The translations under genes and the position numbers were made by a program. 8,910 bases of DNA from a virus (Duplodnaviria; Heunggongvirae; Uroviricota; Caudoviricetes). The notes under the pieces are model-generated. The model worked only from the letters and a program-made list of their open reading frames with translations. It did not search any database and had not been told where the DNA came from. Positions 941-8,910 of the stretch are shown piece after piece. The DNA lies in the IMG/VR virus record IMGVR_UViG_2778261536_000007; one strand, 5' to 3'. The stretch's first letter is position 1. Each line of letters starts with the position of its first letter.

Positions 941-1906
941 TTATCCTCTGAAACCAGGCGGAATTTCTGTATCCGGTTCAGAAATATGATTAACACAACG
1001 CTGTACAGGTGAACGTCCCAGGCGGATGACCAGTTCGTCCCATTTTTCGCGGAGCTTTGACGGGCTCATGATGTTTTTTACCCAGAATGGATCTCGCTGA
1101 ACCCGACCAAACATTTCGCAAATTTGTCTGTGGCTTCTGCCATCCAGCATCCGCATTGTGCGCACGTCATTGGCCCAGGCAGTCCAGTTAGGCTCTTTTG
1201 GTCGCATGATCTCGCCATCATCACTGGCTGCCTGTTCGTAGAGACCCACGATCCGCCCCCAGATCCACTGCGCACACGCCAAATCCTCCCTGCTACCCCA
1301 CTGGCGTTTTTTCGCACTAAACACAACCGCGTCGGAGTTCCGGGTTAAAGAATCCTGTTCAGTCGTCTGCGGGTCCGGTTGCGAAGCTTCCGGACGAAAA
1401 GTGTTTTTATTCTCTGTAGTAATCTCTGTTGTATTCTCTGTAAGATCATCAGGCCATTTTGACCCGATGACATTGGGTCGTTTTGAACCAATGGAGCGTT
1501 TCATTTTGACCTCTTCCATCGTGTCATTTTGACCTGATGGAGCGGCGCATTTTGAACCGATGGATTCGCTCAATTTGCCACCATCTAAAAGCTCGCTCCC
1601 ATAGTTGATCGTGTAGAAATTGGTCATATCGCGCTTTGATTTATTGAGCTTTTCACAACGCAAAAGCCCCAGCGTTTTCAGACTTGCAAACGCGCGCTTT
1701 AACGTTGATTCTGACCAGAATGGGAACTGTTCAAGCCATTGTTCCGTTGTGTTATAAATCCAGCGAACACCATCACATTCCATGCCGGAGTTGGTATCTC
1801 TCAACCAGTAGTGCAGTTGTTGCAAAACAATGGCTTCGTTTAAGCCAATTTTCATTGCCAGCTGCGTGTTTATAACCAGTGGGCGTTCAGCAAAAAGAAG
1901 GCTCAT
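941..1906 (-). CDS. Phage replication initiator (lambda O-like role) with DnaT-like C-terminal tail
   Basis: First ATG at 1906 (the track's longer ORF to 1960 starts on TTG with no SD). Iterons sit inside the gene as in lambda O, giving a repeated SIGSK peptide. C-terminus ...SEPDTEIPPGFRG resembles the end of E. coli primosomal protein DnaT as I remember it. Confidence 0.7.
   Translation of the reverse strand: MSLLFAERPLVINTQLAMKIGLNEAIVLQQLHYWLRDTNSGMECDGVRWIYNTTEQWLEQFPFWSESTLKRAFASLKTLGLLRCEKLNKSKRDMTNFYTINYGSELLDGGKLSESIGSKCAAPSGQNDTMEEVKMKRSIGSKRPNVIGSKWPDDLTENTTEITTENKNTFRPEASQPDPQTTEQDSLTRNSDAVVFSAKKRQWGSREDLACAQWIWGRIVGLYEQAASDDGEIMRPKEPNWTAWANDVRTMRMLDGRSHRQICEMFGRVQRDPFWVKNIMSPSKLREKWDELVIRLGRSPVQRCVNHISEPDTEIPPGFRG
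1408..1442. repeat. Three tandem 12-bp AT-rich repeats (core TCTCTGT) flanking the iterons
   Basis: TCTCTGT recurs at 1411, 1423 and 1435, a 12-bp period, immediately next to the iteron block inside the replication gene. Confidence 0.6.
1455..1570. repeat. Putative replication origin: five direct iterons of ~23 bp (CATTTTGA[C/A]C + GATGGAGCG-like)
   Basis: Copies begin at 1455, 1479, 1502, 1525 and 1548 with 23-24 bp spacing, all inside the initiator gene. Confidence 0.7.
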
Positions 1907-2631: not shown

Positions 2632-2651
2632 TTGTTAGACTTTTCTAACAT
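2632..2651. promoter_or_regulatory. Operator palindrome TTGTTAGA-N4-TCTAACA in the dicC/dicA divergent promoter region (OR-like)
   Basis: Near-perfect inverted repeat in the 80-bp intergenic region. Same motif recurs at 3142-3163. A degenerate copy may lie at about 2684-2698. Confidence 0.65.
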
Positions 2652-2699
2652 TATTGTGCGCGGGATACCTAAGTCAAGAAAAATTAGAATTACCTAACT

Positions 2700-3107
2700 A
2701 TGGATACAAGAACCCTGGGCCAGCGAGTTCTGGCGCGACGAAAAGAATTACGCTTAACACAACGAGAAGCCGCGCGCCTCGCTGGAGTTGCTCACGTCAC
2801 AATTTCACAATGGGAAAGAGACGAAACCCAGCCAGTCGGAAAACGATTGTTTGCTTTAGCGGATGCTCTGAAGTGCTCACCTACATGGCTAATGTTTGGT
2901 GACGAAGACAAGGCACCAGTGCCTGCACAAGAACTTCATGTGGAAACAGAGCTAACTCCCAACCACAAAGAATTGATCGAATTATTCGATGCTCTTCCAT
3001 CTTCCGAGCAGGAAGCCTTGCTGTCTGAAATGCGCGCAAGAGTAGAAAACTTCAACAAACTCTTCGAAGAAATGCTTAAAGCGCGTAAAAATAAATCAAT
3101 AAAATAA
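2700..3107 (+). CDS. dicA: XRE-family HTH repressor DicA (cI-like, 135 aa)
   Basis: Classic HTH_3 domain (LTQREAARLAGVAHVTISQWE). 135 aa matches DicA. No SD upstream of the ATG; a TAGAAT -10-like hexamer at 2685-2690 suggests a leaderless transcript. Confidence 0.85.
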   Translation: MDTRTLGQRVLARRKELRLTQREAARLAGVAHVTISQWERDETQPVGKRLFALADALKCSPTWLMFGDEDKAPVPAQELHVETELTPNHKELIELFDALPSSEQEALLSEMRARVENFNKLFEEMLKARKNKSIK

Positions 3108-4149: not shown

Positions 4150-4202
4150 TTTCTGGTGACGTTTGGCGGTATCAGTTTTACTCCGTGACTGCTCTGCCGC
4201 CC
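4150..4202 (+). ncRNA. dicF: DicF small regulatory RNA (53 nt), processed from the dicB operon transcript
   Basis: Sequence TTTCTGGTGACGTTTGGCGGTATCAGTTTTACTCCGTGACTGCTCTGCCGCCC matches DicF as I remember it. It sits between ydfC and dicB with no protein-like ORF and ends in a GC-rich stem plus T-run. Confidence 0.7.
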
Positions 4203-4846: not shown

Positions 4847-5104
4847 ATGAGTAAAGTCTTTATTTGCGCCGCTATTCCTGACGAACTGGCAACAAGGGAA
4901 GAAGGCGCTGTGGCTGTAGCCACAGCCATTGAAGCTGGCGACGAACGCCGTGCTCGAGCAAAATTTCACTGGCAGTTCCTGGAACATTATCCGGCTGCTC
5001 AGGACTGCGCTTATAAATTTATTGTCTGCGAGGATAAACCTGGCATACCCCGCCCTGCCCTCGATTCATGGGATGCTGAATATGCAGGAAAACCGCTGGG
5101 ATGA
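4847..5104 (+). CDS. Hypothetical small protein (85 aa) preceding the exonuclease gene
   Basis: ATG with GAGG about 10 nt upstream. Its 3' end overlaps the beginning of the long exonuclease ORF in another frame. Confidence 0.55.
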   Translation: MSKVFICAAIPDELATREEGAVAVATAIEAGDERRARAKFHWQFLEHYPAAQDCAYKFIVCEDKPGIPRPALDSWDAEYAGKPLG

Positions 5105-7271
5105 GGAGTCTGCTTCTTTTGTCCCGGTTGAGACTGAATCCGATCCGATGAACGTCACTTTTGACAAGCTGGCCCCTGAAGTACAGAACGCTGTCATGGT
5201 TAAGTTCGACACATGTGAAAACATCACCGTTGATATGGTTATTAGCGCACAGGAATTGTTGCAGGAAGACATGGCAACATTCGACGGACATATCGTTGAA
5301 GCGTTGATGAAAATGCCAGAAGTTAACGCCATGTATCCGGAGCTTAAGTTGCACGCCATTGGGTGGGTTAAGCATAAATGTATTCCTGGTGCTAAATGGC
5401 CCGAAATTCAGGCAGAGATGCGCATCTGGAAAAAACGTCGCGAAGGTGAACGCAAGGAAACCGGAAAATACACGTCTGTTGTTGATCTCGCCCGCGCCAG
5501 AACCAATCAACAGTACACTGAAAATTCAACAGGAAAAATCAGCCCGGTCATTGCTGCCATTCATCGCGAATACAAGCAGACATGGAAAACACTGGATGAC
5601 GAACTGGCCTACGCTCTCTGGCCTGGTGATGTGGATGCCGGAAACATTGACGGCAGCATCCATCGCTGGGCAAAAAAAGAAGTTATCGACAACGACCGCG
5701 AAGACTGGAAGCGTATCTCGGCATCAATGCGCAAACAGCCTGATGCCCTTCGCTACGACCGCCAGACTATTTTTGGCCTTGTCCGTGAGCGTCCGATCGA
5801 CATTCACAAAGATCCCATAGCACTGAACAAATATATCTGCGAATACCTGACGACAAAGGGCGTGTTTGAGAATGAAGAAACAGACCTGGGCACTGTTGAT
5901 GTTCTCCAGTCATCAGAAACACAAACTGATGCAGTGGAAACTGAGGTATCTGATATCCCAAAAAATGAAACCGCGCCGGAAGCTGAACCATCTGTAGAGC
6001 GTGAGGGGCCGTTCTATTTCCTCTTCGCAGATAAGGACGGAGAAAAATACGGTCGCGCAAACAAACTTTCTGGTCTGGATAAGGCACTGGCTGCTGGCGC
6101 CACTGAAATCACAAAAGAAGAATATTTTGCCCGAAAAAATGGCACATACACGGGCTTACCGCAAAATGTAGATACCGCTGAAGATTCAGAACAACCAGAG
6201 CCGATAAAAGTTACCGCTGACGAAGTAAACAAAATTATGCAGGCAGCCAATATCAGCCAGCCTGACGCCGATAAGTTGCTTGCTGCATCACGTGGTGAAT
6301 TTGTTGAAGGGATTAGTGACCCGAATGATCCGAAATGGGTTAAGGGGATCCAGACCCGCGATTCTGTGAACCAGAACCAGCATGAATCGGAACGGAACTA
6401 CCAAAAAGCGGAACAAAACAGCACAAATGCGTTACAAAACGAGCCAGAAACGAAACAGCCTGAACCAGTGGCGCAACTGGAAGTGGAAAAAGTCTGCACC
6501 GCCTGCGGTCAGACCGGCGGCGGCAACTGCCCTGATTGTGGCGCGGTGATGGGCGACGCAACATACCAGGAAACATTCGATGAAGAGTATCAGGTTGAAG
6601 TTCAGGAAGATGATCTGGAGGAAATGGAAGGCGCTGAACATCCACACAAGGAGAACACTGGCGGCAATCAGCATCACAATAGCGATAATGAAACTGGCGA
6701 GACGGCAGATCACTCAATTAAGGTGAACGGTCATCACGAAATCACATCCACCAGCAGGACGTGTGACCATCTAATGATCGACCTTGAAACCATGGGAAAA
6801 AATCCTGATGCCCCGATCATCTCAATAGGTGCAATATTTTTCGATCTGGAAACTGCTGGCGGAGTCATTGATCGGGACACCATTAAATGGTGGCTTAAGC
6901 AATCACGCGAAGCGCAATCTGCCATTATGACCGATGAAATCCCGTTAGATGATGCACTGTTACAATTGCGGGAATTTATCGACGAAAACTCCGGTGAATT
7001 TTTTGTTCAGGTTTGGGGAAATGGAGCCAACTTCGACAACACGATTTTGCGCCGTTCATACGAACGGCAGGGGATCCCCTGCCCGTGGCGTTACTACAAC
7101 GATCGCGATGTACGCACAATCGTTGAGCTGGGGAAAGCCATAGACTTCGATGCCAGAACGGCTATTCCATTCGAAGGTGAGCGCCATAATGCACTTGATG
7201 ACGCCCGTTACCAGGCAAAATACGTTTCAGTTATCTGGCAAAAACTGATCCCGAGTCAGGCTGATTCTTAA
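5082..7271 (+). CDS. RecE-like protein (annotated in databases as exodeoxyribonuclease VIII) with C-terminal DEDDh (DnaQ/RNase T-like) 3'-5' exonuclease domain
   Basis: Track ORF 4929-7271 starts on TTG inside the upstream gene; first in-frame ATGs are 5073 and 5082. Middle segment DKLLAASRGEFVEGISDPNDPKWVKGIQTRD resembles E. coli RecE as I remember it. C-terminal about 170 aa carry DEDDh motifs: DLETMG, WGNGANFDN, HNALDDARYQ. Confidence 0.75.
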   Translation: MQENRWDEESASFVPVETESDPMNVTFDKLAPEVQNAVMVKFDTCENITVDMVISAQELLQEDMATFDGHIVEALMKMPEVNAMYPELKLHAIGWVKHKCIPGAKWPEIQAEMRIWKKRREGERKETGKYTSVVDLARARTNQQYTENSTGKISPVIAAIHREYKQTWKTLDDELAYALWPGDVDAGNIDGSIHRWAKKEVIDNDREDWKRISASMRKQPDALRYDRQTIFGLVRERPIDIHKDPIALNKYICEYLTTKGVFENEETDLGTVDVLQSSETQTDAVETEVSDIPKNETAPEAEPSVEREGPFYFLFADKDGEKYGRANKLSGLDKALAAGATEITKEEYFARKNGTYTGLPQNVDTAEDSEQPEPIKVTADEVNKIMQAANISQPDADKLLAASRGEFVEGISDPNDPKWVKGIQTRDSVNQNQHESERNYQKAEQNSTNALQNEPETKQPEPVAQLEVEKVCTACGQTGGGNCPDCGAVMGDATYQETFDEEYQVEVQEDDLEEMEGAEHPHKENTGGNQHHNSDNETGETADHSIKVNGHHEITSTSRTCDHLMIDLETMGKNPDAPIISIGAIFFDLETAGGVIDRDTIKWWLKQSREAQSAIMTDEIPLDDALLQLREFIDENSGEFFVQVWGNGANFDNTILRRSYERQGIPCPWRYYNDRDVRTIVELGKAIDFDARTAIPFEGERHNALDDARYQAKYVSVIWQKLIPSQADS

Positions 7272-7595: not shown

Positions 7596-7629
7596 CTAAA
7601 AGCCACACTAACTAATGAGAGAAGTTGAA

Positions 7630-8910
7630 ATGAAATATCCGACAGGCGTGGAAAACCATGGAGGGAAATTACGTATCTGGTTTGTTTATAAAGGCGTAAG
7701 AGTCAGGGAAAATCTGGGGGTTCCTGACACAGCAAAAAACAGGCGCGTTGCAGGTGAACTACGCGCCTCTGTTTGTTACGCAATAAAAACTGGTGTTTTC
7801 GACTATGCAAAACAGTTTCCCTCCTCACGCAATCTGGAAAAATTTGGTGAGGCCCGACAAGATTTAACCATAAAAGAACTGGCTGAAAAATTTCTGGCAC
7901 TGAAAGAAACTGAAGTCGCAAAAACATCACTCAACACATACCGTGCCGTCATCAAAAATATCCTGAGCATAATCGGTGAAAAAAATCTTGCCTCATCGAT
8001 TAATAAAGAAAAATTACTGGAGGTTCGTAAAGAGCTACTGACTGGATACCAGATCCCCAAAAGTAACTATATTGTTACACAACCAGGGAGATCGGCTGTA
8101 ACTGTAAATAATTACATGACAAATCTTAACGCCGTGTTCCAGTTTGGTGTTGATAACGGTTACTTGGCAGATAACCCGTTTAAGGGGATCTCGCCATTAA
8201 AGGAATCAAGAACCATTCCGGATCCTCTTTCGCGGGAGGAATTCATCCGTCTTATCGATGCGTGCAGAAATCAGCAAGCCAAAAATTTATGGTGTGTTTC
8301 TGTTTATACTGGCGTTCGCCCTGGTGAGCTGTGTGCACTTGGATGGGAGGACATAGATCTGAAAAATGGAACAATGATGATCAGGAGAAATTTAGCAAAA
8401 GACCGTTTCACGGTACCAAAAACACAGGCGGGAACCAATCGGGTCATTCATCTTATTAAGCCAGCAATCGACGCTCTCCGGAGTCAGATGACATTAACGA
8501 GACTGAGCAAAGAGCATATCATTGATGTTCACCTCAGAGAGTATGGCAGAACAGAAAAACAAAAATGCACCTTTGTTTTTCAACCTGAAGTGTCAGCGAG
8601 AGTAAAAAATTATGGTGACCATTTTACCGTTGACTCAATAAGGCAGATGTGGGACGCAGCGATAAAACGTGCCGGACTCCGCCATCGAAAATCATATCAG
8701 TCGAGACATACTTATGCCTGCTGGTCGCTGACAGCTGGTGCTAACCCGGCATTTATAGCAAACCAGATGGGCCATGCAGATGCGCAAATGGTATTTCAGG
8801 TATACGGAAAATGGATGTCTGAAAACAATAATGCACAGGTAGCTTTGTTAAATACACAGTTAAGCGAGTTTGTCCCAACCATGCCCCATAACGAAGCAAT
8901 GAAAAATTAA
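7630..8910 (+). CDS. int: Phage tyrosine integrase (lambda Int family)
   Basis: N-terminal MKYPTGVE... arm-binding-like start and C-terminal catalytic region (VYTGVRPGEL, SRHTYA, GHADAQMVFQVYGKW with catalytic Tyr). Alternative upstream ATG at 7615. Stop codon is the last three bases of the window. Confidence 0.85.
   Translation: MKYPTGVENHGGKLRIWFVYKGVRVRENLGVPDTAKNRRVAGELRASVCYAIKTGVFDYAKQFPSSRNLEKFGEARQDLTIKELAEKFLALKETEVAKTSLNTYRAVIKNILSIIGEKNLASSINKEKLLEVRKELLTGYQIPKSNYIVTQPGRSAVTVNNYMTNLNAVFQFGVDNGYLADNPFKGISPLKESRTIPDPLSREEFIRLIDACRNQQAKNLWCVSVYTGVRPGELCALGWEDIDLKNGTMMIRRNLAKDRFTVPKTQAGTNRVIHLIKPAIDALRSQMTLTRLSKEHIIDVHLREYGRTEKQKCTFVFQPEVSARVKNYGDHFTVDSIRQMWDAAIKRAGLRHRKSYQSRHTYACWSLTAGANPAFIANQMGHADAQMVFQVYGKWMSENNNAQVALLNTQLSEFVPTMPHNEAMKN

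Follow-up and report, generated by a model that had tools for sequence, protein, structure and literature searches.

The window analysed here is a stretch of 8,910 nucleotides from a tailed virus of the class Caudoviricetes (IMG/VR record IMGVR_UViG_2778261536_000007), and the element in question is a set of repeats inside one of its genes, the O-like replication initiator gene. The iterons, five 23-bp repeats about two helical turns apart, are located between the parts of the gene that encode the protein's N-terminal and C-terminal domains; they are followed, in the direction of transcription, by three copies of a 12-bp unit, ACAGAGAnTACn, and by an inverted repeat (Table 1). The open frame of the gene extends back to 1960, and the ATG chosen here is the start that is also annotated in phages PhiR42_1 and HannyBb ('replication protein O / O-like'). 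Together with mEp460_ev081, these phages show 96.5-99.6% identity over the gene, under the labels replication protein O, O-like or 'primosomal protein I'. Against PHROG 391 ('replication initiation O-like') the protein gives a full-length match, with its residues 17-321 aligned to positions 11-298 of the 298 in the profile (E 5.6e-91). A Pfam search at E <= 0.01 returned no family, RepA_N included, and an NCBIfam search returned a single weak match, to the DnaT-like tail of the protein.

Table 1. Coordinates of the initiator gene, its internal repeats and the neighbouring features in the window.
Feature	Position	Strand	Remarks
Replication initiator gene, O-like	941..1906	minus	321 codons/amino acids; ATG 1906, stop 941-943; from the list of open reading frames
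N-terminal winged-helix domain, residues 1-112, presumed iteron-binding	1571..1906	minus	AlphaFold model, pLDDT 85
Possible degenerate sixth iteron	1564..1586	minus	GGTGGCAAATTGAGCGAAT; 23 bp upstream of iteron 1; weak, from reading the sequence
Iteron 1	1541..1563	minus	CCATCGGTTCAAAATGCGCCGCT
Iteron 2	1518..1540	minus	CCATCAGGTCAAAATGACACGAT
Iteron 3	1495..1517	minus	GGAAGAGGTCAAAATGAAACGCT; arms most degenerate
Iteron 4	1472..1494	minus	CCATTGGTTCAAAACGACCCAAT; best palindrome of the five
Iteron 5	1448..1470	minus	TCATCGGGTCAAAATGGCCTGAT; core 23 bp before the 12-mer block
GATC (Dam site)	1444..1447		iteron/12-mer junction
Three 12-mers, presumed DNA unwinding element	1406..1441	minus	ACAGAGAATACA / ACAGAGATTACT / ACAGAGAATAAA
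Dyad GTCCGG-N11-CCGGAC	1373..1395		begins 10 bp beyond the 12-mer block; equivalent in position to the right-hand inverted repeat of lambda
C-terminal domain, residues ~190-296	1019..1339	minus	homologous to the lambda O C-domain; PHROGs 2357, 277
C-terminal tail ...VNHISEPDTEIPPGFRG	944..1006	minus	resembles the last ~20 residues of the host primosomal protein DnaT
DUF977 / Ren-like gene	478-900	minus	downstream of the initiator
cII-like / YdaT-family gene	1887-2408	minus
P22-Cro-like gene	2392-2622	minus
pR-like promoter	2650..2677	minus	TTGACT-16-AATAAT; promoter scan
cI-like repressor gene	2700-3107	plus

The core of the 23-bp repeat, GKTCAAAAYG, occurs exactly five times in the window, always on the minus strand (0.19 occurrences expected; none of 200 shuffles reached five), with plus-strand starts at 1455, 1479, 1502, 1525 and 1548 and spacings of 24, 23, 23 and 23 bp. 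The 12-bp unit, searched as ACAGAGAWTA, has three minus-strand copies at 1408-1441 (0.02 expected). Tandem Repeats Finder recovers a period of 23 at 1481-1564 and a period of 12 at 1411-1442, and a repeat finder places in-register 23-bp copies at 1447, 1471, 1494, 1517 and 1540. The original prediction, made from the letters of the sequence, had listed the same five starts and three 12-bp repeats with TCTCTGT at 1411, 1423 and 1435, and these are confirmed, as is its order of iterons followed by 12-mers along transcription, which holds in that direction only since the gene lies on the minus strand. Its description of the units requires some revision. The 23-bp repeats are real, but the copy at 1479 reads CGTTTTGA and not CATTTTGA, and the proposed tail GATGGAGCG is not general, as two of the five copies have it and another one has GATGGATTCG, the true unit being a near-palindrome of 9+5+9 bp with the consensus ATcaGGTCAA-A-aTGaCCtgAT. 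The repeats are indeed translated, into the series SIGSK, PSGQND, EEVKMK, SIGSK, VIGSK. The 12-mers had been called AT-rich; this is correct as far as composition and stability go, but they are more than A+T-rich, being sequence-specific and conserved across phyla.

The period of 23 bp is not divisible by three, so that the iterons are read in all three frames, which excludes a repeat that is purely one of protein sequence; read in three frames and palindromic, the iterons are thus DNA-level elements. Among 13 diverged relatives that share this iteron type, iterons are spaced by multiples of 23 bp, and the distance from the last core to the 12-mer block is always 20-23 bp. Two positions outside the search pattern are near-invariant in these relatives (A3 in 51/51 and T23 in 50/51 copies) and define a dyad of 21 bp, which would be suited to a dimer. 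At the position equivalent to the possible sixth iteron, one relative (L006) has a good copy. As single-stranded DNA (ssDNA) the iterons are predicted to fold into hairpins.

The 12-mer block is predicted to be unstructured as ssDNA. It is the G+C minimum of the gene (0.30) and its least stable 36-bp stretch, at -39.8 kcal/mol against a window mean of -48.6 kcal/mol (standard deviation 3.5). Along transcription the iterons run from 1563 to 1448, followed by GATCTT, the 12-mers from 1441 to 1406 and the dyad from 1395 to 1373. Read from the sequences of relatives, the junction ...GATCTT|ACAGAGA is usual in those from enterobacteria and GACAAAT in those from Firmicutes. Three further candidates were considered for this region and dropped: DnaA-trio-like elements, as there is no DnaA box nearby; a site for an HUH nickase, as the protein is not of the HUH type; and a sigma-70 promoter inside the 12-mers, whose hexamers are poor on reading the sequence.

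Past the block, a perfect dyad of at least 6 bp stands at the same position in 20 of 41 non-redundant relatives, compared with 8% of shuffles. Its arms co-vary, with the pairs GGTTGC/GCAACC, GGTTTC/GAAACC, GGTTCC/GGAACC and GTCCGG/CCGGAC represented (relatives include L004, L027, L104, L138, L167 and L228), and the dyad is kept through compensatory changes. In more distant taxa the dyad position is often occupied by a (CG)n tract, translated as ...RARA....

For the 12-mer, scans of sequence collections give lower bounds, and the counts are of matches listed. The exact 23-nucleotide core of the block is present in at least 120 viral contigs, and by the 200 bp upstream of it the matches sort into 16 classes, among which there are at least 10 unrelated iteron arrays, each of them ending 0-10 nucleotides before the block. 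Across phages, prophages and plasmids, 2-4 copies of ACAGAGAnTACn directly follow at least 10 unrelated iteron arrays, and the carriers belong to Proteobacteria, Firmicutes, Fibrobacteres, Nitrospinota, Acidobacteria and cyanobacterial hosts (Nostoc plasmids and a Synechococcus phage). In Stx-converting phages, the only 40 bp in common with the gene are the 12-mer block: their 'O' protein has different iterons, a different N-domain and a different C-domain, yet four copies of the 12-mer stand right after the iterons. In one class of relatives, the sequence past the 12-mers continues like that of lambda past its A+T-rich region, which places the block in the slot of the latter. Among cultured phages, the block lies within replication-initiator genes of phages of Bacillus (PM1), Staphylococcus (phage 37), Acinetobacter, Erwinia, Pseudomonas, Xanthomonas, Vibrio, Synechococcus and Burkholderia (DC1, where the flanks are visibly G+C-rich).

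The choice of codons in the block was assessed with all 1536 possible codings of the peptide TENTTEIT in a collection of one genome per species (596 Gb), where about 25 chance matches are estimated. Among the 120 matches listed, 57 are ACAGAGAATAC[A/T]ACAGAGATTAC, that is, two nucleotide strings, and each of them directly follows an iteron-like array. These canonical matches span Enterobacterales, Acinetobacter, Aeromonadaceae, Pasteurellaceae, Lachnospiraceae, Clostridium, the Bacillus cereus group, Fibrobacteres, Nitrospinota, Deltaproteobacteria and Acidobacteria. Of the 37 open reading frames (ORFs) that match a hidden Markov model (HMM) of the N-domain, 36 use a canonical string and one does not, this exception being a single synonymous change; the 62 non-canonical codings all fall outside the family. 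A further 21 canonical ORFs give no match to the N-domain HMM and carry a second N-domain type or are truncated. The HMM, built on the window-type domain, is narrow and misses this second type, and profile-profile comparison was used instead. In the flanking units, which were not part of the search pattern, no variation is seen at third-codon positions 3 and 9 (48/48), whereas position 8, which changes the amino acid (an Asn/Ile/Ser/Thr switch), is free (0.35 bit), under an extension criterion that favours consensus-like units.

An untranslated copy is found on the Bacillus plasmid pBSG3 (NC_014104), where a non-coding cassette of about 190 bp, outside any ORF, is homologous to the rep gene of phage PM1 (715-885 against PM1 1385-1600, stretch coordinates). 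This cassette comprises four iterons, three ACAGAGATTACT units and a CGCGCAAAAACACGCGC GC palindrome; stop codons close its T-E-I-T frame, and on each side the homology dies out over a few dozen bases. The plasmid itself has an unrelated 'protein rep' gene and no phage initiator, and several related Bacillus plasmids of 8.4-8.9 kb match too. An orphan cassette of this kind might act as a decoy against the phage, or allow the plasmid to be replicated by it. Taken together, the results from contigs, codons, flanking units, cultured phages and plasmids indicate that selection acts on the DNA sequence as such. The block is a sequence-specific DNA-level element shared by one large initiator superfamily, and is not merely A+T-rich DNA.

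This superfamily is defined by the N-domain. Under single-linkage clustering, the N-domains of 39 of 40 non-redundant 12-mer carriers form one phmmer-linked cluster, and their C-domains form 16 clusters, which include lambda-O-C-like, DnaB_2/DnaD-like, Phg_2220_C, DnaA_N and DUF6017 domains. Profile-profile comparison links the window-type N-domains, other proteobacterial ones and those of the Firmicute-Acinetobacter type with probabilities of 92-98%, compared with less than 1% for the lambda O N-domain. The N-domain profile retrieves 15,898 representative clusters, and neither Pfam nor NCBIfam has a model for it. Of 95 representatives with a single N-domain, retrieved by that domain alone, 57 carry the peptide footprint of two 12-mer units (median residue 140; 0.7 expected from shuffles) and 77 carry at least one unit. 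The clustering, the profile links and the footprint counts together make the block a hallmark of a single superfamily of initiators. The relatives that score best with the N-domain (including P0121-P0157) are proteins of about 400-880 amino acids with two tandem copies of the domain, a distinct architecture, and the 12-mer footprint is present in 2 of 44 of them. The block also coincides with joints in mosaic genes, as the homology to Klebsiella phages is confined to window positions 1408-1849 (N-domain, iterons and block) and that to other E. coli prophages to the C-domain, where it ends at the block (query 467). The block marks the joint at which modules for origin specificity and host specificity are shuffled.

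The N-domain of the window protein (112 residues) has 377 homologues, none with a Pfam domain over the region. An AlphaFold model, built with an alignment of 34 homologues, was compared with solved structures by Foldseek, and the best matches were N-domains of RepA_N-type plasmid initiators (4pql, 5kbj and 4pt7, including a Rep-DNA complex). The C-domain, homologous to the P-binding domain of lambda O, aligns with lambda O by BLASTP with 34% identity over 148 amino acids (E 5e-26). The tail matches positions 160-179 of the NCBIfam DnaT model weakly (E 0.006) and, again weakly, the DnaT chains 2ru8, 6aep and 9zbt_D in the PDB (residues 301-321 matched); a PDB sequence search with the initiator found nothing beyond this tail. 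In a 2026 paper on the preprimosome, the DnaT C-domain docks on PriA. The DnaT-like tail of the phage protein may be a direct route to the host restart or helicase-loading machinery.

The proposal drawn from these observations is that the repeats form the origin of replication of a lambdoid prophage and lie within the prophage's own initiator gene, a reading to which a probability of roughly 80% can be given. A lambda-style layout inside an initiator gene had already been put forward in the original prediction, and it is supported by the anatomy and by comparison (iterons, least-stable block, dyad, C-domain homology and gene order). By analogy with lambda, winged-helix dimers of the initiator N-domain would bind the five phased 23-bp dyad iterons, each with its central A-tract; the resulting wrapped nucleoprotein complex, together with supercoiling and transcription from the pR-like promoter, would melt the three adjacent ACAGAGAnTACn 12-mers; and the lambda-O-like C-domain and the DnaT-like tail would recruit the helicase-loading machinery of the host. 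The 12-mers might also be read by a conserved portion of the initiator, perhaps on one of the single strands, in the manner of plasmid Rep proteins. Winged-helix plasmid Rep proteins have been reported to bind one strand of the repeated 13-mers of the DNA unwinding element (DUE), with all repeats required (PMC4081077), and lambda-type O proteins bind A/T-rich ssDNA (PMC7466680).

Several points weigh against this reading. The relatives that were looked at have no annotated rep_origin feature. A search for DnaA boxes (TTWTNCACA) gave a single match at 881-889, at chance level and away from the origin, and the IHF-site pattern gave chance-level matches away from the repeats, neither element being required in a lambda-like origin, though with their absence one potential support falls away. 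In its N-domain the window protein gives no match to the lambda O model TIGR01610 (phage_O_Nterm), which lambda O itself matches at 5e-39, and hhalign gives a probability of less than 1% against the N-domain of lambda O and 0.3% against P22 gp18. With no sequence relationship between the N-domain and these proteins, the mechanism is carried over by analogy only. The fold matches of the N-domain are modest (E ~3e-3, TM ~0.55, 16-18% identity), with generic winged helix-turn-helix regulators close behind, and the proposed recruitment of the helicase through the C-domain and tail draws on weak matches of 20 residues. The initiator is not followed by a gene of the P, DnaC or DnaB type, nor does the annotation of the complete HannyBb genome list one. 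Finally, the 12-mers are in one reading frame in 40 of 41 non-redundant cases, from which some contribution of the encoded Thr/Glu-rich linker peptide is possible.

A broader proposal, at about even odds, is that two to four tandem copies of ACAGAGAnTACn represent a sequence-specific origin element not described before, the hallmark of a winged-helix initiator superfamily that Pfam does not cover (15,898 clusters), and that this element stays constant in nucleotide sequence across phyla while the iterons and the helicase-recruiting domain are exchanged; it would serve as a site of strand opening or loading, its reader being a conserved portion of the initiator or some universal host factor. 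The way in which the 12-mers are conserved suggests specific reading. That they travel with one N-domain superfamily speaks for the initiator as their reader; a universal host factor is the main alternative. Under this alternative, the 12-mers would be read by a factor common to all bacteria (a DnaB-family helicase, DnaG primase, SSB, or DnaA on single strands), for example as a loading or priming site. The presence of the same sequence in hosts of several phyla while the initiator C-domains differ would fit such a factor, as would the predicted lack of ssDNA secondary structure in the block and the CTG on the complementary strand of every unit, CTG being the template trinucleotide of the E. 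coli primase. However, the trinucleotide preference of primases differs between phyla, the block is tied to one N-domain superfamily and has no accompanying DnaA box, and the lambda O / P22 gp18 and SPP1 G38P origins, served by the machinery of the same hosts, do not contain it. Reading by a host factor is for these reasons considered unlikely.

It is quite improbable that the 12-mers are instead a recombination 'linker' for swapping origin-specific N-modules and host-specific C-modules, with no role in unwinding. The exact break of homology at the block in mosaic relatives (1408-1849 in Klebsiella phages, the C-domain only in E. coli prophages), and the joining of one N-domain superfamily to 16 C-domain clusters, are what such a linker would produce. 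However, phages of Bacillus, Staphylococcus, Burkholderia, Acinetobacter and Escherichia and the genomes of Fibrobacteres, Nitrospinota and Acidobacteria share no common gene pool, so that second-order selection for recombination cannot keep 23 nucleotides constant among them. Moreover, the block is the thermodynamic minimum of the gene, in the position of the lambda unwinding region, and the mosaic joints are better seen as a consequence of its conservation.

Iterons of plasmids serve in copy control too, and the repeats might accordingly be regulatory sites for the initiator or another protein (for autorepression, as a transcriptional roadblock or for copy-number 'handcuffing'), with the origin elsewhere. 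This is very improbable given the full lambda layout of iterons, least-stable block and dyad in the right order and orientation, which is conserved with fixed distances across many relatives and which the annotated origin of P22 shares at the same place in gene 18, and given that a plasmid keeps the cassette alone, without the gene. Least credible of all is a role at the protein level only, as a flexible linker (SIGSK..., TENTTEITTEN) between the two domains with no function in the DNA. In its favour, both sets of repeats are translated, the 12-mers in the same frame in 40 of 41 non-redundant relatives; against it, each iteron copy is a DNA palindrome with a period that puts the five copies in three frames, the family uses 2 of 1536 TENTTEIT codings with synonymous positions invariant and a non-synonymous one free, and pBSG3 retains the copy that is not translated.

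The gene order cI / cro / cII-like / O stands behind a pR-like promoter, from which transcription would run through cro, the cII-like gene and O and across the origin. A scan for promoters and terminators found no promoter within the origin, the sole one being this upstream site. Beyond the initiator, the DUF977/Ren-like gene is followed by a methyltransferase gene. An Rfam search returned nothing that overlaps the repeats; its single match is a full-length DicF antisense RNA at 4151-4202 on the plus strand (RF00039, 76.7 bits). DicF and the YdfB/C/D-like small genes annotated in relatives mark the region as a prophage segment of the Qin/dicB type. On the same strand, an ORF of 780 amino acids (4929-7271) has a C-terminal Rv2179c-like 3'-5' exonuclease domain and is labelled exodeoxyribonuclease VIII or RecE-like in relatives; it is followed by an integrase gene (7615-8910), which reaches the last base of the window and gives the orientation of the prophage arm. 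Of 5426 complete E. coli genomes, 1849 carry the initiator gene. Among the RefSeq rows listed it is labelled 'hypothetical protein' and its upstream cII-like neighbour 'toxin YdaT family protein', so that recognition of an initiator with an internal origin fills a gap in prophage annotation that concerns about one third of complete E. coli genomes.

Unwinding elements are usually deemed merely A+T-rich, and the present 12-base unit is kept against synonymous drift from Escherichia to Bacillus, Burkholderia, Fibrobacteres and Nitrospinota. Such letter-for-letter conservation across phyla points to a specific reader. If this reader is the initiator, the idea that Rep proteins bind single-stranded DUE repeats would extend from a few plasmids to thousands of phages. 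The 12-mer also provides a simple sequence signature for locating the origins of phages and prophages, and the combination of a DnaT-like tail with the lack of a helicase loader suggests a route for hijacking host helicase loading that is unlike that of lambda P. A literature search for the 12-mer motif (both strands and the peptide readings) found no description of it, with subscription journals and the lambdoid ori papers of 1979-1984 outside its coverage. In early papers on lambdoid origins, the iterons of lambda, phi80 and 82 reportedly differ while the A+T-rich part is shared. If so, variable iterons beside a conserved unwinding part would be an old principle, and what is new would be the motif, its phylogenetic reach and the evidence at codon level.

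Compared with known systems, the closest parallels are the origins of lambda (in gene O) and P22 (in gene 18), which likewise lie in the middle of the initiator gene and have four to six dyad iterons with an AAAA(C/T) centre. The iteron of lambda is built as 7+5+7, ATCCCTC-AAAAC-GAGGGAT, and that of the window as 9+5+9, CATyrGkTC-AAAAy-GaCCyrATG; the iterons of the window measure 23 bp and abut, against 19 bp in lambda. Also shared are a region of low stability made of short repeats and then an inverted repeat (GTCAGAG...CTCTGAC in lambda), a C-domain homologous to that of lambda O and the gene order cI / cro / cII / O. In contrast, the N-domain of the window protein is unrelated in sequence, and the unwinding block is made of ACAGAGAnTACn in the window but of ACAAAAGACAnT in lambda and P22. 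In these two phages a short repeat ACAAAAGACAnT(AT)nACAAAAGA is common to the A+T-rich parts of the origins (1120-1165 in lambda and 1925-1965 in P22, stretch coordinates) while the iterons differ, and from this the lambda-O-type initiator family seems to possess an unwinding repeat of its own, likewise conserved and parallel to ACAGAGAnTACn. Gene 38 of SPP1 has neither the ACAGAGAnTACn nor the ACAAAAGACAnT repeat.

Origins of plasmids offer partial parallels. Those of RK2 (TrfA) and F (RepE) also combine a winged-helix initiator with iterons beside an unwinding element of short direct repeats whose sequence matters (PMC4081077), but they lie outside the rep gene, include DnaA boxes and have repeat sequences unrelated to those of the window. 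The RepA_N plasmid initiators (RepA of pSK41 and pTZ2162; 4pql, 4pt7 and 5kbj) are the best structural match to the predicted N-domain and share the two-domain layout of a DNA-binding N-domain and a variable, host-specific C-domain; however, the likeness is modest and confined to the fold, nearly equalled by that of generic winged helix-turn-helix regulators, with no match to Pfam RepA_N. The 12-mer block was not found in RepA_N plasmids, and the two matches in Staphylococcus plasmids that were looked at are located in genes of the phage type. In RepA_N plasmids the origin repeats lie inside the rep gene. In lactococci, fragments of phage origins carried on plasmids act as 'Per' (phage-encoded resistance), and the pBSG3 cassette of iterons, 12-mers and palindrome, homologous to the rep gene of PM1 and orphaned from any initiator, resembles these, a likeness that concerns a relative and not the window. 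Lambda P and the P22 gene-12 helicase have no counterpart in the window system, whose initiator ends in the DnaT-like tail. The 12-mer element, the distinct N-domain superfamily and this loader-less arrangement make the origin a variant of the lambda-style design.

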